Assembly (NCBI GenBank): GCA_037444665.1
Contig: JBBILZ010000018.1
Coordinates: 1-43,453, forward strand
DNA length: 43,453 bases
Direction of reading: 5' to 3'
From: a candidate division WOR-3 bacterium
GTDB lineage: Bacteria > Hydrothermota > Tepidihabitantia > SM23-42 > JAOAFX01
Both the position numbers and the translations under genes were made by a program. The stretch's first letter is position 1. Each line of letters starts with the position of its first letter. Below are positions 18,779 through 43,453 of the stretch, piece by piece. The notes under the pieces were generated by a model, which searched no databases, was not told the origin of the DNA, and worked only from the letters and a program-made list of their open reading frames with translations.

Positions 18779-19168
18779 ATGAAATATGATAAGGAGATAA
18801 ATTATTGGCTGAATACCGCTGCCCACGATTTAGATGTGGCTGAGTTCCTCTTCAAAAATGGTAGATACGATTGGTGTCTTTTTATTGCTCATTTGGTCTT
18901 AGAAAAGACGCTAAAGGCTTTTTATGTCCGAGACAATCATAAAATGCCTCCGCCAATTCATAGATTAGACATTTTGGCAACTATGATAAGGCTAAATCTA
19001 TCAGATGAACAATTGGAATTTTTGAAAAAAGTAAATGAATTCAATATTGAGGCAAGGTATCCTGATAAGAAGTTTTCTTTCTATAAACTATGCACCAAGG
19101 AGTTTGCTGAAAAATATTTTACAAAGATAAAGGAATTATACAAATGGCTTTTAGAAGAGATAAAATAG
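18779..19168 (+). CDS. HEPN domain protein
   Basis: W...A.HDL..A...F.AH..LEK.LKA, PPIHRL, EARYPD. Confidence 0.88.
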   Translation: MKYDKEINYWLNTAAHDLDVAEFLFKNGRYDWCLFIAHLVLEKTLKAFYVRDNHKMPPPIHRLDILATMIRLNLSDEQLEFLKKVNEFNIEARYPDKKFSFYKLCTKEFAEKYFTKIKELYKWLLEEIK

Positions 19169-19464
19169 TTGATGAAATAAAGAATTTAATAAAAATACTT
19201 AAAAAAAACGGAATTAATATCTCTGCCGCGTATCTATTTGGTTCATATGCGAGAGGTAGTGCTAATGAATGGAGTGATATTGATGTAGCATTAGTTTCTG
19301 ATAATTTCAGTGGCTTAAGATTTTATGATATAGAAAAATTACTTTCGGTTCTTAAGAAATATAATCATTTCATTGAATTTCACCCCTTTAAAAAAGAAGA
19401 TTTTAATCCTGATAATGATTTATTTATTAAAGAAATAATATCCACCGGGATTAGAATCAAGTGA
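19144..19464 (+). CDS. Minimal nucleotidyltransferase (MNT), partner of HEPN
   Basis: YLFGSYARG...WSDIDVALVS; overlaps the HEPN gene. Confidence 0.88.
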   Translation: MAFRRDKIVDEIKNLIKILKKNGINISAAYLFGSYARGSANEWSDIDVALVSDNFSGLRFYDIEKLLSVLKKYNHFIEFHPFKKEDFNPDNDLFIKEIISTGIRIK

Positions 19465-19545: not shown

Positions 19546-19740
19546 AACTTTGATGATTGGTCATTGAATATGCGATTCAAGATTTTGACCCAACTTGAGA
19601 CCGAGGCGATAAACTTTGCAAAAAGTTGCCTGGAGCATAAAAACAAACAGGATGCCAAAAGAGTGCTGGAAAAGGTTTTAAAGATAATCCCTGATTCAGA
19701 AGAGATTAAAAATTTGTCTGATAGTCTTATAGTCGTATAG
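19546..19740 (+). pseudogene. Orphan copy of the 3' end of a BTAD regulator gene
   Basis: 19546-19700 aligns ungapped to 18553-18707 with 18 mismatches in 155 bp by manual count; reads NFDDWSLNMRFKILTQLETEAINFAKSCL...DSEEIKNLSDSLIVV*. Confidence 0.88.
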
Positions 19741-19888
19741 TCTTATGGTCCGATAGTCGCATGGTCTGATGGCCCTACGGTCCAATGGTCCTATAGTTTT
19801 ATAGTTGGATGGTTTTATGGTTGGATTGTTGGATAGTTGTATAGTTGTATAGTCTGATAGTCTCATGGTCCGATGATCTTATGGTCAG
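19721..19888. repeat. Degenerate octamer tandem array, 21 units of consensus ATRGTYNN
   Basis: ATAGTCTT ATAGTCGT ATAGTCTT ATGGTCCG ... ATGGTCAG, exact 8-bp period. Confidence 0.9.
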
Positions 19889-20385
19889 AGGAGGTTGTAG
19901 CGTCCATTATTAAATGGACAATTTATTCGGTCCAAGGTAATAGGTTAGCCATTCTAAAAAATTGGATTAAATCAAAGTGGTTGCCCAATTTCCCGAAGGG
20001 ACTCTCGTCCCATCGGGACGGAGCATTGGGCTCTTTTTGGTGCTTGATAAATCAAGCAACTACAATTTCAGGATGGCTAAACTATTACGGTTCAAGTTTT
20101 TCTGAAATCCATCCTCAAATTGTTTTAGTTTGAGAATACGACAATACGACAATTGTCGTATTGCCGTATCAATGTATGTGCTGTATAGAGATTTATGATA
20201 ACGTCATTTTTAAGATTAAACCAGGTAAAAAACAAAAAATATTATAATGAATATTTAAACAATTAAATAATTAAACAATTGTTTAAGTGTTTAAATAAGC
20301 TGTTTTCTTCTACTTGTTAACAGGGGGGGGCTTGTTGGAAGATGTTGATTTTTCAGAAAAATGGGATACAATTGAGCAGTGGGCT

Positions 20386-23220
20386 ATGTCTGATTCTCAA
20401 TTTTTTCCTGAGATTGATCGGATTATTGAAAAGTTGAAACAAGATAAAAAAGTTTTCGTTTCAGGTGTTTCGGGTTCACCTCTGATTTTATTTATTCTTG
20501 AGCTTTCAAGAAAGATTTTTCCTGTTGTGTTTATTACCACCAAAGATAATTTAAAACAACAAAGAGATAATTTTACTGGAATTTTTTCCGAATTGACAAT
20601 CATTGACGAGAGCAGTCCATTTTATGAACCTTCACGAGTGATGATTATTGATGAGAAATTTTTAAATAAAGAAATTTATTGCCGAGAAAGGCTTGACCTT
20701 GTCACAGGTAAATGTATTGACCGTGATAAATTTTTAGCACGACTTGAATCAAGTGGTTTTCAAAGAGAAGAAATTGTTGAAGAGGCAGGCGAATATGCAG
20801 TGCGGGGTGGTATTATAGACCTTTATCCTGAAGGACAGCCAGCCGTGCGTATTGAATTAGATGCAGATAGAGTTTACTCAATAAGAAGGTTTGATATTCA
20901 GACACAACGTTCATTTGAGGTGCTTGAGCATTATTCATTAAAACTTGCTACAACTGATTTATTGGTTGTAGTAAAAGAAGAGATACAAAAGACAGGTTTA
21001 TTAATTGTTGAGAAAGATTTTGATTTGGCACTCCCGCAAATAGTTTTAGCACCATCCGGCGATTTCAATTACCATTTCAGTCTGCCCCGTAAATATTTCG
21101 GAGACCTGAAAGCATTGCAGAAGGATATAGACCAGGGCAATTATAAATATAAATTTTTGATCCACCCATCGCTCAATAAAAGATTGTCATCAATCATCGG
21201 ACCTATTGAGATCAGTCCTGTGTCTTTGAAAGAAGGTTTTGTTGATGAAGATAGAAAGATTGTTTTTCTCACTGAAAAAGAGATATTCGGTTTGTTGCTA
21301 GTGAAAAGACCGCGCTATAAGGGGCTCTTTATAGATGATTTAAAAGGATTGAAGATTGACGATTATGTAGTACACAATAACTATGGCATTGGTCAATTCA
21401 AGGGCCTTGTCCAGATAGATTTTGAGGGTAAGAAAGTGGAATGTCTGCGCATTGATTATGCTGGTTCAGATAAGGTCTTTCTGCCTGTAGAAAAATTAAA
21501 TCTTCTTGAGCGTTACATAGGCAGTGAAGGTAGACCCCCAAGATTATCAAAATTGGGTAGCGACCTCTGGCTGAGAACCAAAGAACGGGTGAAAAAGGCA
21601 ACAGAAACCCTTGCCCTGGAATTGATAAATCTTTATGCCCGGCGTCAACTCAGCAAAGGTTTTGCCTATTCACCAGATTGTCTGGAGGTAAAGGATCTTG
21701 AATCAAGTTTTATATATGAAGAAACGCCATCCCAGCAGAATGCAATCAACGATGTAAAAAAGGATATGGAATCTCCAGAACCAATGGAACGCCTTGTTTG
21801 TGGAGATGTGGGATTCGGTAAAACAGAGGTTGCAATCAGGGCAGCATTTAAAGCAGCAATGGATGGAAAACAGACAATGTTGCTCTGTCCAACGACCCTG
21901 CTTGCATTTCAGCATTACAATACCTTTATTAATAGATTAAAAAATTTCCCGGTGCGGATTGAAATGGTTTCACGATTCAAAAAGGCAAGGGAGTTAAAAG
22001 AGATATTCAAAGAGTTAAAACAAGGTAAGATCGATATTGTTATTGGAACGCATCGCCTTTTAATGCCCGATGTAGTATTTAAGGATTTGGGACTTTTAAT
22101 TATTGATGAGGAACAGCGCTTTGGGGTGCTACAGAAAGAAAAGATCAAAAAGATAAAGCCTGGGATTGATATTATCTATCTCTCTGCGACGCCAATACCA
22201 CGGACACTTTATATGAGTCTGGCTGGACTAAAGGATATTTCTATTATTAATACACCACCGGCTGGAAGAAAGGACATTATTACTCGCATTATCTATTTTG
22301 ATGAAGAGGAAATAAAAAAGATTATTTGTTTTGAACTGGGACGCAATGGACAGATATTTTTTGTGCACAATCGTATCCAGACTATAGAAACGGTCAGGTT
22401 ACGTCTGCAACATCTTTTACCCGAACTAAAAATTTGTGTGTTGCATGGACAGATGAGGTCTGTGCTAAGTGAAAAGAAGATGATAGCGTTTCTTGAGGGT
22501 AAATATGATTTACTTTTATCCACAGCAATTGTGGAATCAGGCCTTGATATGCCACAGGTAAATACTATTATTGTTAACGAAGCGCACAAATTTGGACTTG
22601 CTGACCTGCATCAATTAAGGGGCAGGGTGGGAAGAAGCGATGTGCAGGGCTATGCCTATTTTATTGTTCCTGAGCGCAGGATTACTGAAGAGGCGCAAAA
22701 AAGATTGAGTGCCCTCGTTTCCTATACCACGCTCGGTTCTGGTTTCAGGTTGGCAATAAGGGATATGGAGATTCGTGGCATCGGTAATATACTTGGAAAA
22801 GAACAGTCAGGTTATGTGAATGCAATAGGTTACTATAACTATGTTAAGATTCTCAACAATATGGTAAATGAATTAATGGGAAAACCAACAATGCTTGAAC
22901 CAATACTCAACCTTAAGATTGCCGGCTATATCCCTGCTGAATACATTGCAAGTGCCTATGAAAGGACAGCAATGTATAAAAGATTTATGGAGGTTCAGTC
23001 CGAATATGAATTGGAAAGACTTAAAGATGAAATCATTGACCGCTTTGGCAGATATCCACCCGAGGTTGAGAATCTCTTTTTGCTTTCAAAGATAAGGCTT
23101 ACTGCAATAGGTTATAATGCCAGTGAGGTTGTTCAAAAAGGAGACTCCATACTCTTTTATCAACAGGGTAGATTGATTCAAGAATTATCAGTCAGTAGCT
23201 TAGCGCTGAAGATGAATTAA
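20386..23220 (+). CDS. mfd: Transcription-repair coupling factor
   Basis: GEYAVRGGIIDL, YVVHNNYGIG (CarD-like RID), GDVGFGKTEVA, DEEQRFG, SATPIPRTL, QLRGRVGRS, TRCF C-terminal domain. Confidence 0.95.
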   Translation: MSDSQFFPEIDRIIEKLKQDKKVFVSGVSGSPLILFILELSRKIFPVVFITTKDNLKQQRDNFTGIFSELTIIDESSPFYEPSRVMIIDEKFLNKEIYCRERLDLVTGKCIDRDKFLARLESSGFQREEIVEEAGEYAVRGGIIDLYPEGQPAVRIELDADRVYSIRRFDIQTQRSFEVLEHYSLKLATTDLLVVVKEEIQKTGLLIVEKDFDLALPQIVLAPSGDFNYHFSLPRKYFGDLKALQKDIDQGNYKYKFLIHPSLNKRLSSIIGPIEISPVSLKEGFVDEDRKIVFLTEKEIFGLLLVKRPRYKGLFIDDLKGLKIDDYVVHNNYGIGQFKGLVQIDFEGKKVECLRIDYAGSDKVFLPVEKLNLLERYIGSEGRPPRLSKLGSDLWLRTKERVKKATETLALELINLYARRQLSKGFAYSPDCLEVKDLESSFIYEETPSQQNAINDVKKDMESPEPMERLVCGDVGFGKTEVAIRAAFKAAMDGKQTMLLCPTTLLAFQHYNTFINRLKNFPVRIEMVSRFKKARELKEIFKELKQGKIDIVIGTHRLLMPDVVFKDLGLLIIDEEQRFGVLQKEKIKKIKPGIDIIYLSATPIPRTLYMSLAGLKDISIINTPPAGRKDIITRIIYFDEEEIKKIICFELGRNGQIFFVHNRIQTIETVRLRLQHLLPELKICVLHGQMRSVLSEKKMIAFLEGKYDLLLSTAIVESGLDMPQVNTIIVNEAHKFGLADLHQLRGRVGRSDVQGYAYFIVPERRITEEAQKRLSALVSYTTLGSGFRLAIRDMEIRGIGNILGKEQSGYVNAIGYYNYVKILNNMVNELMGKPTMLEPILNLKIAGYIPAEYIASAYERTAMYKRFMEVQSEYELERLKDEIIDRFGRYPPEVENLFLLSKIRLTAIGYNASEVVQKGDSILFYQQGRLIQELSVSSLALKMN

Positions 23221-31168: not shown

Positions 31169-31470
31169 TTATTAAGTTCTGGCGCAAGCCACTTGATATA
31201 GATAAGATTAAGATCCCGATAGGCGAAATCCATATAATTAAGGACCGGTGTAAAGGTTGTGGTTTTTGCGTTGAATACTGTCCAAAAAAGGTCCTTGAGG
31301 TATCCAAGGAATTTAATTCCAAAGGCTATCATCCACCACTGGTTAGAAATCCTGATGCCTGTCGTGAATGCCATCTCTGCGAGATGCTTTGTCCTGAATT
31401 TGCCATCTATATTACATTAAAGGAAGAGAAACCAGTGAGTGATATCATTGACCAGTTAGAGATGAAATGA
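31165..31470 (+). CDS. 2x[4Fe-4S] ferredoxin, oxidoreductase delta subunit
   Basis: CKGCGFCVEYCP, NSKGYHPP, CRECHLCEMLCP. Confidence 0.88.
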   Translation: MIIKFWRKPLDIDKIKIPIGEIHIIKDRCKGCGFCVEYCPKKVLEVSKEFNSKGYHPPLVRNPDACRECHLCEMLCPEFAIYITLKEEKPVSDIIDQLEMK

Positions 31471-32681
31471 ATGAACCTGATAAAACTTTGTTAAGCGGAA
31501 AATATTTGTTGTCCGGTGCTGAGGCATGTGTTGAAGGTGCTTTTATTGCTGGATGCAGGTTTCTGGCAGGCTATCCGATAGTGCCGGCACTTAATATTTA
31601 TCATCATTATCTAAAAAGGGCAAAGGATTTAGGGGCAACATATATTCAGATGGAAGATGAGATTTCTGCCCTTGCGGCAGTGCTTGGTGCTTCCTGGAGC
31701 GGCAAAAAATCTATGACTGCTACTGCTGGACCCGGCTCTTCATTAATGATGGAACACTTTGGTTTGGGTGTAATGCTTGAAACTCCTTGTGTTATTGTGA
31801 ATGTGCAACATATTGGACCAGGCCCTGGTATGCCCACAGCGCCATTTCAAGGTGATGTAATGCAATCAAGATGGGGCTCACATGGTGATTATGAAACAAT
31901 TGTTCTTGCCCCTTCATCGGCTCAGGAGATGTTCAACTTTACAATCAAAGCGTTTAACTTTTCTGAACATTATCGTGTGCCAGTGGTGGTGCTTTCTGAT
32001 GCATACCTTGCCGATGAGAAGGAAGAGGTGATTGTCCCGGCATTAGAAAAGATTGAGATAGAACCAAGGCGATATTATGATGGGCCAAAGGAGAAATATC
32101 TTCCATATAAAAGAGAAGCCGACTTCGTTCCTTTAATGGTTGATACTGGTAAAGGTTATAAATTTCATGTCACAGGCCTTACACATGATGAGCGCGGTTA
32201 TCCAGTAATGAATGAAGAATGTCAGGAATTTAATGTTCATCCACTCGTCTGGAAGATTAGAAAAAATGCAGATAAGATAATTAATTTTACTGAGGTAAAA
32301 ACGGATGATGCAGATGTTATTGTCATTACTTATGGTCTTGGATACAGAACATGCCTCAGCGTAGTAGAACAGTTAAGAGCCGAAGGTATTAGGGTAGGTC
32401 TTTTAAAACTGAATGTGATCTGGCCATTTCCAGAAAAGCGAATATATGAAACAGCAAAAAAGGTAAAGGGTATTGTAGTGATGGAAATGAATTGCGGACA
32501 GGTTGTGTATGAGGTTGAACGAATAGCTGGAGGAGCTACAAATGTGCTATTTACCTTACAGAGTATTAATAAAGCAGACACAACCCGGAATTTAATTTCA
32601 GCAATAAATCATGCTTTAAAGATTAACGGAGTTAAAGACAAAATTATCGGATTAAATGATTTAATGAGTGCAGGAGATTAA
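31467..32681 (+). CDS. 2-oxoacid:ferredoxin oxidoreductase alpha subunit, divergent copy
   Basis: AGYPIVP, QMEDE, RWGSHGDY, GLTHDERG, WPFP. Confidence 0.88.
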   Translation: MNEPDKTLLSGKYLLSGAEACVEGAFIAGCRFLAGYPIVPALNIYHHYLKRAKDLGATYIQMEDEISALAAVLGASWSGKKSMTATAGPGSSLMMEHFGLGVMLETPCVIVNVQHIGPGPGMPTAPFQGDVMQSRWGSHGDYETIVLAPSSAQEMFNFTIKAFNFSEHYRVPVVVLSDAYLADEKEEVIVPALEKIEIEPRRYYDGPKEKYLPYKREADFVPLMVDTGKGYKFHVTGLTHDERGYPVMNEECQEFNVHPLVWKIRKNADKIINFTEVKTDDADVIVITYGLGYRTCLSVVEQLRAEGIRVGLLKLNVIWPFPEKRIYETAKKVKGIVVMEMNCGQVVYEVERIAGGATNVLFTLQSINKADTTRNLISAINHALKINGVKDKIIGLNDLMSAGD

Positions 32682-33525
32682 AATGGAGACATTGACGAAA
32701 ATACCTAAAGAGATACATCCAATGGAAAATTTGCTCCGGATGGAGCGGATCCCCCATATCTGGTGTCCGGGGTGCGGTATTGGCCTGGCAGTCACGGCAT
32801 TTGCTGCTGCAATTGATAAAGCAAAGATAGATTTGAATAAAGTGGTGGTTGTTTCAGGTATTGGATGTACAGGAAGGGTTGCGGGTTATATGAAACTTGA
32901 TTCATTCCATACCACACATGGTCGGGCGATTGCCTTTGCTACAGGTATCAAACTTGCTAATCCTGAATTAAAGGTTGTAGTAATTTCTGGTGATGGCGAT
33001 TTGATTGCCATTGGTGGTAATCATTTTATCCATGCCGCACGCCGTAATATTGATATGGTTGTAATCTGTGTAAATAATTTTATCTATGCAATGACCGGTG
33101 GCCAGGTTGCACCAACTACCCCATTAGGTGCTTATAGTACTACATCTCCGTACGGTTGTGTAGTAGAACCTTTCAATATTCCATATATTGCGGATTCCTC
33201 AGGTGCAGTATATGTTGCGCGCTGGACTGTGCTTGATGTGCGTCGCCTTACCAATTCCATTAATGAAGCATTGAATAAAAAAGGTTTTTCAGTAATAGAG
33301 GCAATCTCGCCCTGTGCCCAGTATTATTCAAGAACAAATCGGCTCGGTGAAGGCATAGATATGTTAAGATTCTATCATGATAATTCAGAAATCAGGCATG
33401 GTGAAGATACAAAGAATTTAGATATTGGTTTTCAGACAAAGATTATTGTGGGGAAATTTGTAGACCGTGAACGGCCGACTTATTTAGAAGTATACAATAA
33501 AAAACTTCAGGAAATGGAAGTTTAA
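32668..33525 (+). CDS. 2-oxoacid:ferredoxin oxidoreductase beta subunit (KorB-like, canonical motifs)
   Basis: WCPGCG, SGIGC, HTTHGR, GDGD, NN.IYAMTGGQ, SPC. Confidence 0.92.
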   Translation: MQEIKMETLTKIPKEIHPMENLLRMERIPHIWCPGCGIGLAVTAFAAAIDKAKIDLNKVVVVSGIGCTGRVAGYMKLDSFHTTHGRAIAFATGIKLANPELKVVVISGDGDLIAIGGNHFIHAARRNIDMVVICVNNFIYAMTGGQVAPTTPLGAYSTTSPYGCVVEPFNIPYIADSSGAVYVARWTVLDVRRLTNSINEALNKKGFSVIEAISPCAQYYSRTNRLGEGIDMLRFYHDNSEIRHGEDTKNLDIGFQTKIIVGKFVDRERPTYLEVYNKKLQEMEV

Positions 33526-33526
33526 A

Positions 33527-34777
33527 ATTAAGGCAAATCCTAATGATGTCTTCACTGGTAATTATTATATAGATGGTGATGTTGCCGCAGGTTATGGTGC
33601 GCTTGCTGCGGGCTGTAAATTTGTCGCAGGCTATCCAATAACACCATCAACCGAAGCATTTGAGGCAATGTGCCGGAGAGGTCCATATACTGGAGCAATC
33701 TTTATTCAGATGGAAGATGAACTTGCTTCTATCGCTGCAGTAATAGGTGCGCGCTGGGCAGGAGCCAGGTCAATGACCATTACTTCAGGCCCTGGTTATT
33801 CATTGATGATGGAAGCAATTGGTTATGGAGCAATGACTGAGACGCCTTTTGTGCTTCTGAATATTCAGCGCACTGGTCCATCTACTGGTGTTCCGACCAA
33901 GACTGGCCAGGCAGATATTATGCAATCGCGCTGGGGTTCACATGGTGATTATGAAATCATTGCAATCTCACCTGATTCTCCACAGGAACTATTTGATTAC
34001 ACAATAAAGGCATTTAATTTAGCAGAACGATATCGCTGTCCAGTAATGATAATGTCTGATGAATGTGTTGGTCATATGACCGAAAAGGTTGTTATTCCTG
34101 AAGCGGATAAGATTGAAATAGAATCACCGCGGATATATACTGGTCCAGCAGAAGAATACTTCCCATTCAAACCAAAATCAGACCTGGTGCCGGATATGGC
34201 AAAGGCAGGTGAGGGGTTGAGATTATACATTACCGGCCTCCTCCATGATGAACGTGGTTATCCAGTAACAAAAGAAGAATTTAAAACACAATATTTAAAA
34301 AGGCTGGTGGATAAGATCCGACTCAATAAAGATAAGATTATTGAAATAAGAGAAGAAGATACTGAAAACGCCGAAGTTGTAGTGGTCGCCTATGGTATAT
34401 CAGCACGGGTTGCAAATAAGGGAATTGAGATTGCAAAAAATCGGGGAATAAAAGTTGGTAGTATTCGTCTTATCACGGTCTGGCCATTTCCGGATGAAAG
34501 GATAAATGAGTTATCAAAGAAGGTGAAGGCATTCGTCGTTCCTGAAATTAATTATGGCCAGATTGTATATGAAGTGGCGCGTTGTGTACATGGCAGGTCA
34601 AATGTGATGCTTGTTCCACATGGAGGTGCGGGTGTTCATAATCCCGATGATATTGCAGATGCAATTGAATATGTGGTGAAACAGACAGCAATATATGAAG
34701 GTGTTATTGAATTCAAAACAACCCTTGAAAAGAAAATTTTTGAAAAAGTAATTAAAATGGTCGGGAGAGAAGAATGA
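33527..34777 (+). CDS. 2-oxoacid:ferredoxin oxidoreductase alpha subunit (KorA-like, canonical motifs), probable non-ATG start
   Basis: The frame of ORF 33668 extends 47 codons upstream (KANPNDVFTG...AGYPITPSTE) with no ATG/GTG/TTG; ATT at 33527 follows GGAAG; QRTGPSTG present. Confidence 0.85.
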   Translation: MKANPNDVFTGNYYIDGDVAAGYGALAAGCKFVAGYPITPSTEAFEAMCRRGPYTGAIFIQMEDELASIAAVIGARWAGARSMTITSGPGYSLMMEAIGYGAMTETPFVLLNIQRTGPSTGVPTKTGQADIMQSRWGSHGDYEIIAISPDSPQELFDYTIKAFNLAERYRCPVMIMSDECVGHMTEKVVIPEADKIEIESPRIYTGPAEEYFPFKPKSDLVPDMAKAGEGLRLYITGLLHDERGYPVTKEEFKTQYLKRLVDKIRLNKDKIIEIREEDTENAEVVVVAYGISARVANKGIEIAKNRGIKVGSIRLITVWPFPDERINELSKKVKAFVVPEINYGQIVYEVARCVHGRSNVMLVPHGGAGVHNPDDIADAIEYVVKQTAIYEGVIEFKTTLEKKIFEKVIKMVGREE

Positions 34778-35520
34778 ATCTTTTTATTGATATTCTTGAC
34801 CGGGCGATTGAAAAATCAGGAGTGCTTCGTAAAAATATTTCAGTCGTATCAGATATTCCATTTGCTCCTGCAACAACAAAAAATTTAGGGATAGATTTTT
34901 TTCATACAATGCGCGGTCGCACCATTGCCTTCGCAACAGGGATGAAATTGGCAAATCCCGGGCTTAAAGTTATGCCTGTTGTTGGTGACCTTATCACCAT
35001 TGGTGGAAACCATCTGGTTCATACTGCACGAAGGAATATGGATTTACTGGTTATCTGTATTAATAGTTTTGTCTATTCACGGATTGCGGGACAACCTGCC
35101 CCCAAATCAGCACTCCCATTTTCCCCTTATTCACCATTTGAAGAACCATTTAATATCCCGCATCTTGCCAATTCCTGTGGTGCAGTGTATACTGCACGAT
35201 GGACTGCACTCCATTCTGAACAATTGATAGATTCTATTGCCGAAGCAATGAACAAAAAGGGACTTTCTGTGATAGAAGTTCTCTTGCCCGGTCCCAATTT
35301 TTATAATGATATTGAAAAAATAAATGAAGAACTATTAAAATTTTACTTTGAAAATTGTATAATAAAAGAAAATCTTGAGCCGCGAAATGTTCCTATATTA
35401 CCCGAAGAGAAGATTATCGTGGGTAAGTTTACAGATAAACAGAGACCGACATTCCTTGAAAGATATAATAATCAGTTGAGTAAAGCACTGGGTGAAAAAT
35501 TCAAGCCTTATGGAGTCTAA
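34774..35520 (+). CDS. 2-oxoacid:ferredoxin oxidoreductase beta-like subunit with degenerate cofactor motifs
   Basis: FHTMRGRTIAFATGMKLANP, GGNHLVHTARRN, YTARWT; lacks CPGCG, SGIGC and GDG. Confidence 0.82.
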   Translation: MNLFIDILDRAIEKSGVLRKNISVVSDIPFAPATTKNLGIDFFHTMRGRTIAFATGMKLANPGLKVMPVVGDLITIGGNHLVHTARRNMDLLVICINSFVYSRIAGQPAPKSALPFSPYSPFEEPFNIPHLANSCGAVYTARWTALHSEQLIDSIAEAMNKKGLSVIEVLLPGPNFYNDIEKINEELLKFYFENCIIKENLEPRNVPILPEEKIIVGKFTDKQRPTFLERYNNQLSKALGEKFKPYGV

Positions 35521-36141: not shown

Positions 36142-39100
36142 ATGCAGAAAGGGGTTCTGGTTATCGGGGGTGGTATTGCAGGTATTCAGGCTGCCCTTGA
36201 CCTGGCAAATGCGCAATTCCGGGTATATCTTGTGGAAAAATGCCCGAACATTGGCGGAAGAATGGCTCAACTCCACAAGATATTTACCTCAATGGATTGC
36301 ACGGCTTGAATACTCGGTCCAAAGATGATGGATGTCGGTCGACATCCTAATATTACCCTGTATACGCTCTCTGAAGTAAGAGAAGTTAAAGGTGAGGCAG
36401 GGGATTTTTCGGTCAAAATTATAAAACACCCCAGATATGTAAATATTAATCAATGTACTGCTTGTGGTGACTGTGCCAAGGTCTGTCCGATGGTTGTCCC
36501 CAATGAGTTTGATTTAGGGCTTAAATCAAGAAAGGCGATATATACTCCTTATAACCAGGCAGTGCCTTCAGCTTATATCCGGGTAAAAGAAGAGTGCCTT
36601 GATAATGTACCGGAGCGGGCAAGAAAAATAATGAAGCGAATACAGGAAAAGAGAGAAAAAAAATATACCCCCTGGGAACTCATTGCCTGCGGTAAGTGTA
36701 TACAAGCCTATAAGGCAAAGTGTATAAATTTTGATGAGCCAGAGGAGATTATTGATTTAAATGTTGGCGCAATTGTTGTTGCAACAGGAGTAGCATACTA
36801 TGACCCCAGAGAGGCGAGTGAATATGGGTATACAAGGTTTGAAAATGTTGTGACCAGTTTTGAATTAGAGCGATTGCTGGATGCGGCAAGTCCTACCCGG
36901 GGAGAGTTGCTCACTTTTACAAATGTTCGCCAGCCGAGGCGGATTGCTTTTATCCAGTGCGTTGGCTCCCGTAATATGAAAGCAGATATTCCATTCTGCT
37001 CAAGAATCTGTTGTATGAATACAATCAAAGATACGCTGGTGATTAGAGAACACTATCCCGATACAGAAATAATGGTATTCTATATTGATATACGGGCATT
37101 TGGTAAGGGATTTGAAGAGTTTTATAGAAGGAGCCTTAATGCGGGAGTAAAATACATCAAAGGTAAACCATCAAAGATTATTGAAGATAAAAAAACTGGT
37201 GAATTACTCCTTGCCTATGAAGACCAGTTAAAAGGAGAAATCAAAAATCTGGTTGTTGATATGGTTGTTCTTTCATCAGCAATGGTGCCAAGTGAGGGAA
37301 CAAAAAATCTTTCGCAAATATTAGGTATTGAGCTGGATAAAGATGGTTTCTTTAAAGAGCAGGACCCGTGCAGTTACCCCCTGGAATCAACCAGACCTGG
37401 TATCTATGTATGTGGCTGTGCTACAGGAGCAAAAGATATTACAGATGCCATTGCTGAGGCAAGCGGTGTTGCAGCAAAAGCGGGTGTGCTGGTTAAAGAA
37501 AGTGTCGTTGAAGAAAAAAAAGAAGAGATTTTACCACTTGACCTCTCTGGTCCGCTTCGTGTTGGTGTCTTTGTTTGCCATTGCGGCACGAATATTAGTG
37601 CAGTTCTGGATATTAAACAGATTTGTGAATATGCAGCAAAATTAAAGGATGTTGTTTTTGTTGATAACTATCTATTTGCATGTGCCGAGAGTGTGCAGAA
37701 AAAGATTCAAGAGGCAATCTTGCAAAATAAATTGAATCGTATAGTTGTAGCAGCATGCACACCAAAGACACACGAAGGTGTTTTTCAGGAGACACTTTTA
37801 AAGATTGGATTTAATCCCTATTTATTTGATATGGCAAATATCAGGAATCAGTGTTCCTGGGTCCATCAGCACGACCCAGAAATGGCTACAGAAAAGGCAA
37901 AAGAGATTGTAAAAATGTCAGTGCAAAGGGTAAAGAGATTAGAACCCCTATCACCTAAAGCATTGAATGTAGGAAGGGAAGTGCTGGTTATTGGTGGCGG
38001 TGTTTCTGGCATCCAATGTGCGATTGACCTAACAAATCGTGGATTCAAGGTCTATTTGATTGAAAAAGAAAAGGAACTTGGTGGAAGGGTGCAAAGGTTG
38101 TCCAGTGTTTACCCAGCAGGTATGAGCGGCGCATCATTGATTGAGAAAAAGAAAAGAGAGTTAAACGATAAGGGTGTTGAGAGCTATACTGATGCAGATA
38201 TCAAGGATATCAAGGGATTTGTTGGAAATTTTGAAATAAAAGTTGCAACACGAGGAAAAGAACTGGATTTAAAAGTTGGCGCAATTGTGCTGGCGATCGG
38301 TGCGGACCTTTATAAACCACTGGATAAATTTGGCTACGGACAATTCTCCAATGTTCATACCAGTATGGAACTGGAGAATATGCTCATAGAAAATTCAGAA
38401 AATCTGCAAGGTCTGAAGAGTGTGGCATTTATCCAGTGTGTTGGTTCACGGGCAGAAATAGGTAATACCTGGTGTTCAAGGTATTGCTGTCAGTCTGCAA
38501 TAAAACAGGCAATATTGTTGCGCAAAAAAGGAATTGATGTTACAATCTTCCACCGTGGGATAAGAGTTTATTCAAAGGGTGCAGAGATGATGTATCGTCA
38601 GGCAAGGGATATGGGTGTATTATTTATTCCTTATTCAGAACTGGCAAAAGGTGAAATACCAGAAGTCATTGGTGCCAGAAAAGCAGAGAAGATTGAAATG
38701 TATCTTGATGTAATTGACAAAGAGATTGTTGTGCCGGTTGATGCGGTTATTCTGTCTGTAGGTATGGTGCCCAATGGAAACGAGACAATGAAATTATCAG
38801 ATTTATTAAAGGTGCCCAGGGGGAGCGATTTATTCTTCTTAGAAAGGCATTCAAAATTTGGTCCTGTGGAAACAACAGTTGAAGGTGTATTCCTTGCCGG
38901 CTGTTGTATGTTTCCAATGGATATTGGTGATTCCATTTCCCAGGCATCAGCAGTGGCCGCTAAAGTATCTTCATTATTATCCAGGGATACAATTGTTTTG
39001 CCGCCAATAACTTCCTCAGTGGACGAAATCTACTGTCGTGGTTGCGGACGCTGTGTGGATGTGTGTGAATTTCATGCAATCTCGCTTATTGAAAAAGAGC

Positions 39101-39243
39101 CTGAGCTTTTTATCGCCAGAGTGAACGAGGCATTATGCAAGGGCTGTGGTACTTGTGTTCCTGCCTGTCCAACTGGTGCAATTGATTTGCGGCATTTTAA
39201 ATCCGAACAGATAAGTGCCCAACTTGAGGCATTGCTTAAATGA
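36142..39243 (+). CDS. hdrA: Selenocysteine-containing double HdrA-like flavoprotein
   Basis: AGGAGG RBS and ATG 36142. ORFs 36094-36309 and 36325-39243 are in one frame across TGA 36307-36309 (DCTA-U-ILGPK versus DCSQCILTPK in the first HdrA). Two GGGxxG and two FIQCVGSR modules, internal VCHCG. Confidence 0.87.
36330..36347 (+). promoter_or_regulatory. Candidate bacterial SECIS hairpin
   Basis: GGATGTC-GGTC-GACATCC perfect 7-bp stem with G/U-containing loop, starting 21 nt after the UGA. Confidence 0.65.
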
Positions 39244-39680
39244 ATTTCGAACCAAAAATTGTTGCCTTTTGTTGCAACTGGTGCTCTTATCCGGCAGCAG
39301 ATGGTGCGGGTGTTGCCCGATTACAGTATCCACCAAATATCCGGATTGTGCGCGTGATGTGCGGTGGCAGGGTGACACCGGGAATGGTGTTAAAGGCATT
39401 TGAACTTGGTGCAGATGGTGTCATTGTTGCCACCTGCCATTTTGAAGATTGCCATTACATATTCGGAGCAAGAAAGGCTGCAGATGTCCATAAGATAACT
39501 GAAAAACTTGTAGAGATGCTTGGTATTGAATCAGCAAGACTAAAACTTGATTGGATCTCTTCTGCGGAGACGACAAAATTCGCAAAAGTTGCCACAGAAT
39601 TTACAGAAACCATTAGAAGACTCGGACCGAGTTCTATAAATAAGAAGAAAGATAGTATATCGGAGAAAGAAGATGGGTAA
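39240..39680 (+). CDS. mvhD: MvhD/FlpD [2Fe-2S] subunit
   Basis: AFCCNWCSYPAAD, RVMCGGRV, CHFEDCHY, WISSAE. Confidence 0.93.
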   Translation: MNFEPKIVAFCCNWCSYPAADGAGVARLQYPPNIRIVRVMCGGRVTPGMVLKAFELGADGVIVATCHFEDCHYIFGARKAADVHKITEKLVEMLGIESARLKLDWISSAETTKFAKVATEFTETIRRLGPSSINKKKDSISEKEDG

Positions 39681-40101
39681 ATACACCGAAACTGAAAATT
39701 CGAAAAACGAAATACGAAATTCGAAACAAATTCAAAGGCCCAAAATACAAAATTCAAAACGATACGATCTTGAAGAACGTACAATTAAGTTCGCCAGAAG
39801 AGTCAGAGATTTCGTAAAACAATTGCCTAAAACGCTTGCAAATACTGAAGATATTAAACAATTAGTAAAATCATCGGGTTCTGTTGGTGCAAATTATATT
39901 GAAGCTAATGAAGCATTAAGTAAAAAAGACTTCATAATGAGAATAAAAATTTGCCGGAAAGAATCCAAGGAGAGTCGATATTGGCTGAAACTTTTGTGCA
40001 CAAATAATAAATTTGAGTTAGAGAACGAAAGACTATCATTGATTGATGAAGCGACTGAACTTATGAATATCTTCGGTTCCATAGTAAGGCGGAGTGAGTA
40101 A
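39673..40101 (+). CDS. Four helix bundle protein (23S rRNA IVP/bAvd-like fold)
   Basis: YDLEERT..FA, QLVKSSGSVGANYIEANEALSKKDF, KESKESRYWL. Confidence 0.88.
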   Translation: MGKYTETENSKNEIRNSKQIQRPKIQNSKRYDLEERTIKFARRVRDFVKQLPKTLANTEDIKQLVKSSGSVGANYIEANEALSKKDFIMRIKICRKESKESRYWLKLLCTNNKFELENERLSLIDEATELMNIFGSIVRRSE

Positions 40102-40204
40102 TGTCAGAGTTAATTAGAATTTGTTTTGAATTTCAATATTCGGATTTGTTTCGGAATTCGAAATTCGGATTTGTTTCGGAATTCGAAATTCGGATTTCGA
40201 ATTT
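39696..40204. mobile_element. Four-helix-bundle cassette bounded by inverted heptamer-rich arms
   Basis: Left arm AAATTCGAAAAACGAAATACGAAATTCGAAACAAATTC...AAAATTCAAAAC (39696-39760) is an imperfect reverse complement of the right arm GTTTTGAATTTC...TTCGGATTTCGAATTT (40123-40204). Confidence 0.6.
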
Positions 40205-40213
40205 ATTAAAGGT

Positions 40214-41362
40214 ATGAATCTCGCTGAAGCAATTCGCAATTCCCACGCCCTGCTCTGCCTTGATTGTGGCAAGTGCACGGGCGTGTGCCCGGTCTCTAAA
40301 TTAAATCATAATTTTTCACCGCGGGTATTATTAAATAGGGCATTGCGGGCTAAGAATGAAGATTTATTTAAAGATAAAAACATCTGGCAGTGCCTGACTT
40401 GTGGACTCTGTAATGAACAGTGCCCGGCTGATATTAATTACATTGACTTAACTCAGGCGATCCGGTTTGAGGCATTAAAACTTGGTGAAGAGGCATTATG
40501 TTCGCATGGTGGTGCAGCACAGTCTTTAATGAGAATAATGTCTTCACCCGAACTGAGCCCCAAACGGATGGAGTGGCTTGATAAGAATTTAAAAGTTGGC
40601 GAAACTGGTGATACTCTCTATTTTGTTGGTTGTGCCCCATTTTTTGATGTGTTATTCAGTGATATTGTAGCCGTATCAACAAAGACCGGTAATGATACAA
40701 TAAAAATTTTAAATTATCTTGATATTACACCGGTTATACTTAAAGAAGAAAGGTGTTGTGGTCATGATTTGTTATGGCAGGGCGATTTTGAAAATTTTAA
40801 AAAGCTCGCTGAGTTTAATATAAAATTAATGAAGGATGCAGGAATAAAAAAGATAATATTTTCCTGCCCTGAATGTTATCGCACCTTCAGGATTGATTAT
40901 GCAAGATATTTTGATTTTAAAATAGAGATGTACCACATTTCAGAGATTATTTCTCAGGCAGTGAGTGAAAAGAAGTTAAAATTAAAAGAGTTTGCAAAAA
41001 TTGTAACATTTCAGGACCCGTGCAGATTGGGCAGGCACCTTGGTATCTATGAGGAGCCGAGAAAGGTAATGAATGCAATCCCGGGACTCATTTTAAAAGA
41101 GATGAGGCACAACAAGAATCGGGCAATCTGTTGCGGCGTGAGTGCCTGGATGAATTGTTCCAATTATTCAAAAAGGATTCAGATAAGGCGATTAAAAGAG
41201 GCAAAAGAGACAGGTGCTGAATTATTAATCCTTGCCTGTCCCAAGTGTGAAATCCACTTTAACTGTGCAATGAAAGAAGCACCTGAGGCACAGAGGCAGG
41301 ATGAGATAAAGATTGAAACGAAGAATTTCGTTAGTCTCGTTGCAGAAGCGATAGGAGATTAA
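40214..41362 (+). CDS. HdrD/GlpC-like Fe-S oxidoreductase (2x[4Fe-4S] plus two CCG domains)
   Basis: CLDCGKCTGVCP, CLTCGLCNEQCP, ERCCG, CPEC, QDPCRLGR, ICCG, ACPKC. Confidence 0.9.
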   Translation: MNLAEAIRNSHALLCLDCGKCTGVCPVSKLNHNFSPRVLLNRALRAKNEDLFKDKNIWQCLTCGLCNEQCPADINYIDLTQAIRFEALKLGEEALCSHGGAAQSLMRIMSSPELSPKRMEWLDKNLKVGETGDTLYFVGCAPFFDVLFSDIVAVSTKTGNDTIKILNYLDITPVILKEERCCGHDLLWQGDFENFKKLAEFNIKLMKDAGIKKIIFSCPECYRTFRIDYARYFDFKIEMYHISEIISQAVSEKKLKLKEFAKIVTFQDPCRLGRHLGIYEEPRKVMNAIPGLILKEMRHNKNRAICCGVSAWMNCSNYSKRIQIRRLKEAKETGAELLILACPKCEIHFNCAMKEAPEAQRQDEIKIETKNFVSLVAEAIGD

Positions 41363-41416
41363 ATATGGAGATAAATTCGAAATTCGAAATCCGAAATCCG
41401 AAACAAAATCTAAATT

Positions 41417-41539
41417 GTAGCGCCCGATTTCCCCATTTTTCTTGTAGCGCCCGACTTCAGTCGGGCGATGATATCCGTCGTCCATCTAAAGATGGACGCT
41501 ACAATGGAATTAATTGTAGCGTCCGACTTCAGTCGGACG
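41417..41539. repeat. Left REP cluster (GTAG-type palindromes)
   Basis: GTAGCGCCCGACTTCAGTCGGGCG (41444), CGTCCATCTAAAGATGGACGCTAC (41479), GTAGCGTCCGACTTCAGTCGGACG (41516), plus a partial copy at 41417. Confidence 0.9.
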
Positions 41540-41550
41540 AAAAAACAAAA

Positions 41551-42020
41551 TTAACTGATTACAAAACCTTTGGCAGAAGCCATGCGCCTCGCCTGAGAGA
41601 AATAGACTACAAAAAATTAATATATCCAATCCATATTATCGTTGGAACGCACCAGCGGCAGCCGTTTTTCCTACAAAAAAGATTTTCAGAAGTTATAATA
41701 GAAGAAATAGAAAAATTTGATAAATACATCGTTGCCTGGTGTTTAATGCCTGATCATTTACATCTTTTATTTAATCCTGATGGTAAAGAAATAAATATAC
41801 TTAATATAATTAAGCTTATAAAGGAAGAACCTCCCGGAAAATCAATTATCTCTATGGCGTGCAAAAAATCTGGCAAGAAAGTTTCTATGACCATATCCTA
41901 AGAAAAGAAGAGAAAATTGAACAAGTCTCGTTATATATACTAAATAATCCGGTAAGAAAAGAAATTATAGACGATTGGCAAAAATATCCCTATTCATGGT
42001 CGAGGTACTATGAGAAGTAA
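41551..42020 (+). pseudogene. REP-associated tyrosine transposase (RAYT, Y1/HUH), frameshifted
   Basis: HAPRLREIDY...WCLMPDHLHLL...KLIK, then after a 1-bp loss near 41821 GRTSRKIN...WQESFYDHILR...YILNNPVR...YPYS. Start uncertain. Confidence 0.88.
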
Positions 42021-42051
42021 TCTATTCGACCCAATACCTTTTTATTTTTGT

Positions 42052-42297
42052 GATAACGCCCGACTCTCCTATTCTTATTGTAACGCCCGACTTCAGTCGG
42101 GCGATGAAATCTCTCGTCCATCTAAAGATGGACGCTACGGGGAAAATTTGTTTCATTCTTGCTGTAGTGTCCAGTTTCAACTGGACGGAGAAAAAAATGT
42201 TCGTCCATCTAAAGATGGACGCTACAAAAGAATAAATTGTAGCGCCCGACTTCAGTCGGGCGAAAAACCCTCCCGTGCATCTAAAGATGGAAGCTAC
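42052..42297. repeat. Right REP cluster, three inverted doublets
   Basis: Copies at 42080/42115, 42164/42202 and 42239/42274, plus a partial copy near 42052. Confidence 0.9.
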
Positions 42298-42336
42298 CAA
42301 GAAAAAATAAGGATAAACCTAAAATAGAGGGATTTT

Positions 42337-42807
42337 ATGGAAAAAGAGAAGGTCATAGTCAATTTTCGTTTCCGTGATAAATTGAATCAGGTTCCTGGTG
42401 GCAAGCACCATAACTATTGTTATCAATGTAGTGCCTGTGTTGCCTCCTGCCCGGCCGCAAGATTTACAAAAAAATTCAATCCCCGTGTAATACTATTACA
42501 GACACTCCTCGGAATGGAGGAGGACCTGACTGGTAAGGATTCACCAATCTGGCTCTGCACCAATTGTTATGCCTGTTATGAAAGGTGTCCGCAGGATGTC
42601 CGTCCCATAGAAGTGATTATCGCTTTAAAAAATATCTGTGTAGAAAAAGGCACGGCACCAGAAAATCTTACTAAACTATCAGAGAATATCGGTAAGACCG
42701 GTATTAGTGTTGCGGTAACCTCAGCAGTTAATCGTATCCGTCAGGAACTCGGATTGCCTGAACTAAAGAAAATCCCTGTTGATGAATTGAAACAGATAAC
42801 AGAATAA
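42337..42807 (+). CDS. hdrC: Heterodisulfide reductase subunit C
   Basis: CYQCSACVASCP, FNPR, IWLCTNCYACYERCPQDV. Confidence 0.9.
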   Translation: MEKEKVIVNFRFRDKLNQVPGGKHHNYCYQCSACVASCPAARFTKKFNPRVILLQTLLGMEEDLTGKDSPIWLCTNCYACYERCPQDVRPIEVIIALKNICVEKGTAPENLTKLSENIGKTGISVAVTSAVNRIRQELGLPELKKIPVDELKQITE

Positions 42808-42993
42808 CTCCAATCACCCTTAGGGTCAGGTCTTAACCTTTAACCGTTTGCATTCCCGGCTTTTCTGCCTTTGATTGACGAGAAATAAGAATCTGCTCTG
42901 AATTTGCACCATCCCCTTCACCCCATGGCAGCCCAAGAGCGAGTTGGCAGCACTTTTCAGCAAGGTAAAATTTTGAAATTCTGTTTTTTTCTT

Positions 42994-43159
42994 GTCATTG
43001 CGAGGCAACGCAGTTGCCGAAGCAATCTCATCTGTTATTGAATATATCAGGGATTGCGAGCCTTTGCCTTCGGCAAAGGCTCGCAATGACATTAAAGATG
43101 AATAGTGCGGGCTAATTGATATTGAATAACAGCAGATTCTTCACTTCGCTCTGAATGAC
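42994..43159. repeat. GTCATT...AATGAC-type palindromic repeats
   Basis: GTCATTGCGAGGCAACGCAGTTGCCGAAGCAATCTC ... 16-bp perfect stem ATTGCGAGCCTTTGCC-TTC-GGCAAAGGCTCGCAAT-GAC; further copy AGATTCTTCACTTCGCTCTGAATGAC. Confidence 0.75.
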
Positions 43160-43453
43160 AATTTTTTAATAATGTTCGAGGCTTATTAACTATTTTGGTA
43201 AATGTGATTTTAAATAATGAAATTCATCTACTTCATTTAGGTAAAGAATTAATCCAACATAAATCATTAGTAAAACGTAAATATTTGTTTTTCCCAAATT
43301 ACTTTTTATTAAAATTGCATATTATAAAACTGGGGGGATGGCAAGAACGCACTTATGTAATGCGCACACACATCCTTACCACCTTTCCAGTAAGAATTAC
43401 TACTGAGGTTATCTAAAATTACTGGTGGGAATAGGGCAATATTTTCGTTGAGG

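Follow-up and report, generated by a model that had tools for sequence, protein, structure and literature searches.

A four-helix-bundle gene between inverted heptamer arrays in a WOR-3 hdr operon, best explained as one copy of a widespread minimal mobile element

Genes and repeat arms at the mvhD-hdrD junction

The window analyzed here is a 43,453-nt stretch of DNA from a candidate division WOR-3 bacterium (contig JBBILZ010000018.1, forward strand), which contains the gene order hdrA-mvhD-[4HB]-hdrD-[RAYT remnant]-hdrC, where 4HB denotes a four-helix-bundle gene. All features described at this locus lie on the + strand. The 4HB open reading frame (39673..40101, 142 amino acids) is preceded by the host gene mvhD (FlpD; 39240..39680; PF02662, 2e-49) and followed by an hdrD-like CCG/4Fe-4S host gene (40214..41362; PF02754, 4e-29). 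In profile searches, the 4HB frame matched TIGR02436 (67.1 bits, cut-off 24) and PF05635 (50.2, cut-off 33.8), which is the sole domain in the enclosed frame. The initial annotation had called the gene unrelated to redox function. It had also described a start overlapping the mvhD stop and a left arm translated as the first ~30 codons; we found an ATG at 39673 with an 8-nt overlap and GGAG 7 nt upstream, and residues 1–30 are translated left arm, with the core starting from 39763.

The left arm (39686..39760) is a degenerate heptamer array of the AAAT-N-CG type, with a subfamily signature at its end, just before the usual start codon. The right arm (40112..40204) is a non-coding array in reverse complement, as imperfect as had been claimed: the best inverted pair (39696-39736/40164-40204) spans 41 nt at 80% complementarity. 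The annotated perfect 25-bp tandem duplication (40141-40190) is exact, with 40141-40165 identical to 40166-40190 inside a perfect period-25 run (40138-40197), and it is absent from a related locus, L003. The gap between the right-arm end and the hdrD ATG is 9 nt, in agreement with the initial annotation. The inverted flank score at the window cassette was 42, compared to a maximum of 30 in 200 shuffles. No transposase was found inside the cassette; a RAYT-like gene is present 1.2 kb downstream, beyond the arms.

In 103 of 119 homologs, the start Met of the 4HB family is located nine residues before a Y[DN]L[EQ] motif. The window has AGG (Arg) at this conserved position (39736..39738), so that only the upstream ATG is usable and the copy reads through its own left arm. 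Among the 92 homologous proteins long enough to score, the peptide upstream of the family start Met follows the pattern N-[PST]-K-x-E-[IAY]-R-N-[TSP]-K-Q, which corresponds to three degenerate heptamers in frame and varies exactly at the degenerate heptamer position. This pattern suggests that the entire subfamily has the left arm as a DNA feature, which is normally non-coding, i.e., the variation at the degenerate base is a DNA-level pattern tied to the protein subfamily. The window copy is best explained as an old one whose own start codon is lost and whose translation now relies on the ATG overlapping the mvhD stop.

Protein family and fold

An AF2 model of the window protein, based on a 67-sequence alignment, showed four helices (residues 10-25, 31-55, 60-83, and 90-117) with a pLDDT of 93.5. 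The best Foldseek matches of the model were BT_0352 (2rld) and Xcc0516 (2gsc), the latter being the structural prototype, and DGR Avd (4dwl) matched at a TM-score of 0.71, which fits the fold of 23S rRNA intervening sequence (IVS) proteins and Avd recognized in the initial annotation. The 4HB protein has a pI of ~9, and S46, N50, and E53 of an S-x3-N-x2-E motif were invariant across the 67 sequences. The window protein had no match to NF033474 (Avd) at E<=0.01, and the type B 4HB protein of locus L001 scored 34.4 against this profile, below the cut-off of 80. An RT-type Y/F-x-D-D-hydrophobic motif was absent from the six frames of the window, where the neighbors of the cassette are Hdr genes.

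The 4HB family has at least 8000 members, since all 8000 candidates scored were matches, and homologs 69-77% identical to the window protein were named from Pseudomonadota, Nitrospirota, and Aminicenantia. Avd is a positively charged pentamer and an RNA/RT partner in DGRs (PMC6182149), and the likeness of the 4HB family to Avd is already in print (PMC10053308). The family has been found in 23S rRNA IVSs, which RNase III removes without ligation (PMC11270868), and 18 such genes were reported in cas loci (PMC3936711); in the available text of PMC5524665 and PMC10910872 the gene is merely listed.

Inverted arms in the 4HB family

Eleven GTDB loci (L001-L011) were obtained from a genome scan with hdrD, and four further 4HB genes were found in L001 and L003. 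For a plasmid sample, 15 of 30 matching records were chosen for distinct organisms before their flanks were seen, and these belonged to Cyanobacteriota, Bacteroidota, Chloroflexota, Bacillota, and Spirochaetota. Other family genes, which the initial annotation had suggested checking, generally had arms: inverted 7/8-mer arms scored above all 200 dinucleotide shuffles in 18 of the 20 4HB genes tested (five phyla and MAGs), which include four related pairs and are not all independent. An inverted arm partner was not detected for L001 type B and L024 (2/20 genes tested). The direct-repeat score was higher than the inverted score in L012, L013, L016, and L025, so layouts appear to vary.

The repeat unit differs by cassette type (e.g., AAATTCA, TAATTCG, GGAAGTC, and GACTATCA), and the right arm mirrors the left. 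Matched arm pairs reached a score of at least 31 in 18/20 cases, compared to 16/380 mismatched cross-pairs (permutation p 1e-5), and the mismatched pairs reaching 31 were mostly from related cassettes. Among other long open reading frames, 2/117 had flank scores of at least 31, and the top one was hdrD caught between two cassette arms. On these comparisons, the arms are a family trait with type-specific units; the covariation of arm and protein also follows from simple co-inheritance. The number of units per arm was typically 4-5 (medians of 5 and 4.5, range 2-16), and arm length varies too widely for a five-unit rule to be provable. At XCC0516, four GGGAATC units overlap the start, with no inverted partner recorded in the available portion of PMC4692102.

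The 3' 35 nt of the non-coding right arm were identical at 32/35 positions between the window and L003, compared to 89/194 four-fold sites in three host genes, and the window left arm was identical to that of L003 at 35/40 nt. The 4HB genes were under purifying selection, with dN/dS of 0.06-0.24 in four plasmid pairs, and the window and L003 genes had a pN of 0.12 and a pS of 0.83 (synonymous sites saturated). By these comparisons, both the 4HB genes and their arms are constrained. The pS values of the 4HB genes (0.83, 0.79) were higher than those of host genes (0.50-0.69), which could reflect replacement by related copies or weaker codon selection.

Filled, empty, and differently filled junctions in relatives

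The initial annotation had proposed a search for empty sites, and we found mvhD adjacent to hdrD, with an empty junction, in L002, L004, L005, and L006; L007-L011 have no adjacent mvhD at >=35% identity and were left out of the junction scoring. In L003, the junction was filled by a window-type 4HB gene (core 88/112 identical, start Met intact), and in L001 by another 4HB type, identical at 25/108 residues, whose left arm is made of octamers. The hdrA-mvhD junction, which is empty in the window, contained a third 4HB type in L001 and L003, whose right arm (L001 9000-9048, L003 8979-9027) supplies the mvhD start codon. The mvhD genes of these two loci have no native start, the N-terminus being translated octamer repeats, and the C-terminus ends in the arm of another type. 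When the mvhD tails were compared by eye, the last ~14 mvhD codons in the window seemed to resemble a decayed octamer arm of another cassette type, which occupies the same place in L001 and L003. A local profile search found no 4HB gene in L002 or L004-L011.

Filled, empty, and differently filled alleles of the junction therefore exist, to judge from the aligned loci. Neither of the two findings that the initial annotation had set against its own reading, stable synteny in relatives or a lack of inverted arms in other family members, was borne out, although one close relative, L003, shares both cassette and position with the window, which makes the cassette old here. Consistent with this, the window and L003 copies grouped together in a quick, preliminary tree (SH-aLRT 87), suggesting an insertion that is probably old, shared, and long static at this place. 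The window is more distant from both L001 and L003 than these two are from each other, which implies turnover at the mvhD-hdrD junction. A credible target duplication was not found at the window and L003 copies, where the longest shared words were 5 and 7 nt.

An 8-nt stretch just to the right of the L003 cassette (9990-10000) matches the native spacer of the empty L006 junction (9993-10003), a hint that the L003 insertion occurred just after the mvhD stop. Elsewhere in the operon, the annotated start of the second hdrA of the window (36325-39243) looks internal (MMDVGRHP), and the same holds for L001 and L003; the N-terminal part of this gene may be a separate upstream frame or a recoded (Sec) segment. 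The window also has two tandem 2-oxoacid oxidoreductase alpha/beta pairs (31467-35520); one hybrid-looking pair is found in L001 and L003, and both pairs in L006.

Plasmid insertions and Nostoc copies

On Nostoc plasmids, L018 carries a 513-nt cassette inside a gene whose empty counterpart in L027 is uninterrupted, and the target is duplicated over 11 bp. The empty allele (L027 ~975-985 vs L018 774-784) is one base off the duplicated target of all three filled copies. L020/L034 compared to L030 have one junction in common, with different deletions on the other side (~160-185 nt). Antisense cassettes replaced ~30-60 nt in L015 (vs L035/L036) and L014/L033 (vs L031/L032), and their arms yield a new start codon or a new Cas1 C-terminus; Cas1 ends inside the cassette arm in L014 and L033. 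In L040, compared to L041, the cassette is located just before xisH with ~400 nt replaced, and L022 has a further deletion from the arm through xisH. We considered xisH/xisI as further arm-borne cargo and rejected it, as the allele without 4HB has no arms.

A clear target duplication was found at one of the five interpretable plasmid filled/empty sites, and flanking DNA was replaced at the other four. An 11-bp duplication was found in L018 and a possible 6-bp one in L014, with none in L015, L020, L040, and the window; L021 and L037 were too diverged for placing the cassette ends. Three of the 15 plasmid cassettes were antisense to both neighbors. Seven of the 15 copies adjoin cas, DISARM/BREX, or restriction-modification genes, some are in housekeeping operons, and one is inside the gene it disrupts. 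The window cassette DNA had no match to plasmids, and a search of a phage collection yielded two weak, unannotated matches.

Three cassette copies in Nostoc flagelliforme were identical at 512/512 positions with flanks 4-8% diverged (P of 1e-10 to 1e-19 under a history common with the flanks), and mismatches resumed ~20 nt from the ends in 5/6 pair-sides. In sequence terms, this is what recent spread into a single site looks like; as the copies come from one assembly, gene conversion or assembly homogenization is possible. They were considered as identical copies at unrelated sites, and this was rejected because they occupy the same site of paralogous blocks. In L020 and L034, from different strains, the cassettes were 98% identical and the flanks 78-89%.

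Solo arms, gene-less pairs, and palindromes

A solo left-type arm of the window heptamer family (41367..41410) was recognized by its sequence at the hdrD-hdrC junction, where L001 has one too. The right arm of the cassette pairs with it at least as well as with the left arm by score (55 vs 42), with duplex energies of -43.5 and -45.9 kcal/mol, respectively. Many heptamer arrays had no adjoining 4HB gene, and gene-less arm pairs were found in L003 (14428-14522, 16941-17057), L038 (30121-30320), and L039 (44893-45092). Three solo arms (window 41410, window ~19890, and L001 11195) have GTAG palindromes within ~25 nt, one of them with a RAYT gene. Directly behind the solo arm of the window, GTAG-type palindromes and a partial RAYT/IS200-like transposase gene (41412..42310; PF01797 35.3 bits, cut-off 23) constitute a separate element that is possibly linked. 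The RAYT-like frame (41365-41901) is apparently frameshifted near 41830 and scored 34.4 against NF047646, below the cut-off of 80.

At the hdrD-hdrC junction, L001 has a solo arm and palindromes with no RAYT gene; in L003, it contains a single palindrome together with a DNA methyltransferase and an unknown gene of 260 aa. Further upstream in the window, a long solo octamer array (19711-19890), of the type that flanks the third 4HB type of L001 and L003, is followed by a GTAG palindrome; it lies downstream of a HEPN/nucleotidyltransferase pair (18779-19464) and a fragment repeating the end of the 16330-18756 gene. Upstream of an mfd-like gene, there are two short octamer palindromes that enclose no gene (20119-20305). 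In L006, a gene-less, decayed arm pair of the window type (20383-20490) is only 71% complementary and keeps the bases just upstream of the core gene, and it is possibly an internal-deletion derivative. In L038 (29773-29898) and L039 (26269-26395), a gene-less inverted octamer pair lies within a longer 13-bp inverted repeat.

RNA folding

The initial annotation had called for a fold of 39690-40210; the fold of 39660-40230 gave a z of -2.86, with 0/100 shuffles as good, and the predicted arm stem had ~31 expected pairs and an 18-bp uninterrupted helix. When 1.9 kb were folded, the right arm was split between two partners: its first half paired with the left arm (30 expected pairs), and its duplicated half with the solo arm (33). 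One half of the right arm folds more readily into a local hairpin or onto the solo arm further downstream. These folds are of naked RNA and ignore ribosomes, and they are indicative only.

For the strand test, L001 type B and L024 were dropped for lack of arms, and L033 and L034 were added. Arm mismatches had no G-U bias of the transcribed strand (22 G-U vs 22 A-C, at low power), and the sense strand of the arms was more stable in 8/20 cassettes. Rfam yielded no match at gathering score and no rRNA match in 39000-43453; three weak sub-gathering matches to CRISPR-DR9 on REP-like palindromes were taken as chance. Promoter and terminator scans were at chance level (7 vs 9.4 and 3 vs 2.3, respectively).

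Comparison with known systems

The cassette resembles 23S rRNA IVSs with an IVP frame in its protein family, in having a gene within complementary ends in a larger transcript, and in its patchy distribution. Unlike these, it occurs in protein-coding operons or genes in either orientation, its ends are periodic 7/8-mer arrays, and the window copy lies between mvhD and hdrD rather than in an rRNA gene. DGR Avd (NF033474; PDB 4dwl, 8ub7) shares the fold and the basic charge of the window protein; in contrast, the identity is 14%, NF033474 did not match, and no RT motif was found in the window. With MITEs and passenger-carrying non-autonomous cassettes it shares inverted ends, the lack of a transposase, gene-less derivatives, and one target duplication. 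However, its ends are degenerate tandem arrays of variable length with a type-changing unit, one constant, selected gene family is inside, and most sites show replacement rather than duplication. MITEs in the strict sense have no coding capacity, which holds for the gene-less derivatives only, as the cassette carries an intact gene under purifying selection. As with homing elements (group I/II introns, inteins), diverged alleles carry identical copies at one position, and co-conversion is slight or absent; unlike them, the cassette has no endonuclease, RT, or ribozyme, and its insertion can break the target gene.

Heptamer repeats in cyanobacteria are known as STRR. The closest architecture match was to REPtrons (a RAYT gene flanked by REPs) and gene-less REP dimers, which likewise have one gene between inverted type-specific repeats plus dispersed gene-less copies (PMC3733652); unlike REPtrons, the 4HB cassette has no HUH/tyrosine transposase domain in its gene, and a GTAG tag is missing from its tandem heptamer units. 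Intergenic heptamer repeats, such as TAACTGA (PMC4679880) and GGGAATC (PMC4692102), are tandem arrays of a 7-nt unit; many lie immediately upstream of start codons, and many form inverted pairs, of which 70 and 75 cases were reported in two xanthomonads (PMC4692102). Across prokaryotes, heptamers were described as the commonest class of intergenic tandem repeat, with no clear functional clue (PMC6344855). Neither a link of the arrays to 4HB genes nor filled/empty sites were found in the available text of PMC4679880 and PMC4692102. In the full-text literature searched, which was largely open-access, no paper connected 4HB genes with inverted arrays or with filled/empty sites. What is already in print is the 4HB family, its rRNA-IVS and cas occurrence, its likeness to Avd, and the heptamer arrays; the gene-arm link was not found in the texts searched. 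The cassette fails strict membership of rRNA IVSs, DGRs, IS/REPtrons, and gene-less MITEs, and works like a non-autonomous inverted-repeat cassette with REPtron-like architecture.

Interpretation

The observation is real and more general than the initial annotation could tell. The stretch 39686-40204 is best explained as one copy of a widespread minimal mobile element, and with high confidence we regard it as a mobile cassette. The initial annotation had considered a non-polar mobile cassette without a transposase of its own; mobility and the lack of a transposase stood, and the clean, non-polar placement did not, as relatives show intragenic insertion and flank losses of 30-400 nt. The clean placement in the window is best read as survivorship, not as a property of insertion.

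The other model of the initial annotation, an mRNA intervening sequence whose arms pair and loop out the gene, bringing mvhD next to the hdrD-like gene and making the insertion non-polar, was not supported and now appears improbable; in it, the gene would leave the message by an RNase III-type cut or a simple loop-out. The stem predicted in naked RNA with its 18-bp uninterrupted helix, the conserved non-coding arm, and the window and L003 hdrD starts, which by our reading lack a well-spaced Shine-Dalgarno, are in its favor, as is the same family in 23S rRNA IVSs removed by RNase III (PMC11270868). However, that removal is without ligation, and such a cut splits a message and does not join genes, while hdrD, not the 4HB gene, would be looped out if the right arm paired with the solo arm. 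The mismatches (22 vs 22) had no strand bias, the sense strand was more stable in 8/20 cassettes, 3/15 plasmid cassettes were antisense, the left arm is translated in the window copy, and Rfam gave no match at gathering score. Moreover, mvhD starts inside the right arm (L001, L003) and Cas1 ends inside an arm (L014, L033); since these arms lie within host reading frames, excision would damage host genes. A domesticated translational-coupling device, in which paired arms block the downstream start, ribosomes crossing the left arm open it, and the host keeps frame and arms with mobility in the past, is in our judgment also improbable. It would suit a right arm ending 9 nt before the hdrD ATG, a distance within the ribosome footprint, and a cassette retained by both the window and L003 over a time in which synonymous sites diverged strongly; a translational role was also proposed for heptamer arrays just upstream of start codons (PMC4679880). 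Yet it leaves the amino-acid conservation, recent identical copies, intragenic insertion, and antisense copies unexplained, and empty alleles of the same operon exist.

The arrays might otherwise be independent, MITE/REP-like hairpin elements moved by transposases in trans or by recombination between arrays, with the 4HB gene as captured cargo that is kept for a host benefit (e.g., as a defense accessory) and has no role in mobility. Gene-less pairs and solo arms are common, as this explanation would expect, three solo arms are followed by GTAG palindromes within ~25 nt (one with a RAYT gene), and different 4HB types occupy one junction; copies beside defense genes (7/15 on plasmids, and 18 in cas loci; PMC3936711) would agree with a host benefit. 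We nevertheless consider it unlikely, because only 4HB genes were found between matched arms in the loci examined (of 117 other genes 2 scored, one being hdrD between two cassette arms), the arm unit of a given 4HB subfamily is the same in different phyla, and copies are also in housekeeping operons and inside a disrupted gene.

Given a mobile cassette, participation of the 4HB protein in its own mobility is slightly favored. We give about even chances to a transposase-less selfish cassette whose Avd-like protein recognizes its own arms and borrows a host enzyme, an analogy based on the Avd-like fold, the pI near 9, and the median of about five units per arm. The inverted pair of short tandem arrays (7- or 8-nt units) would be the cis-acting ends around a single Avd-like gene, and would pair in single-stranded nucleic acid. 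If it resembles Avd and Xcc0516, the 4HB protein of the cassette would be a basic barrel of five subunits, and it might recognize the arms with about one repeat unit per subunit and hand the element to a catalytic enzyme borrowed in trans. For this enzyme, a DNA transposase or repair function is somewhat probable, and a reverse transcriptase acting via an RNA copy is a reasonable but less favored candidate. Cassettes would land in genes or junctions, often with flanking DNA trimmed from one arm end, and the survivors would be copies that leave their neighbors usable; neighbors may often stay usable because the arms supply new stop and start codons.

More speculatively, and on balance doubtful, 4HB genes with inverted arms may form an unrecognized class of selfish elements across phyla, in which the Avd-like ring of each cassette would bind the cassette's repeat unit and enlist a reverse transcriptase or recombination machinery of the host, so that the cassette is copied into new as well as homologous sites, a form of nuclease-free homing. 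Many intergenic heptamer repeats would then stem from gene-less derivatives and from arms left behind, and 23S IVSs and DGR Avd would be special or domesticated cases. Two puzzles would meet here, i.e., a large 4HB family of unknown function in unrelated operons and the abundant tandem heptamer repeats. A 4HB protein reading its own repeat unit would, if true, be a new sequence-specific nucleic-acid binder with natural protein/repeat pairs. Annotations of 4HB genes through guilt by association (cas, defense, redox) may be insertion artifacts. One mobile unit of 4HB gene and repeats would be testable in cultured Nostoc strains, and may be a possible origin of DGR Avd.
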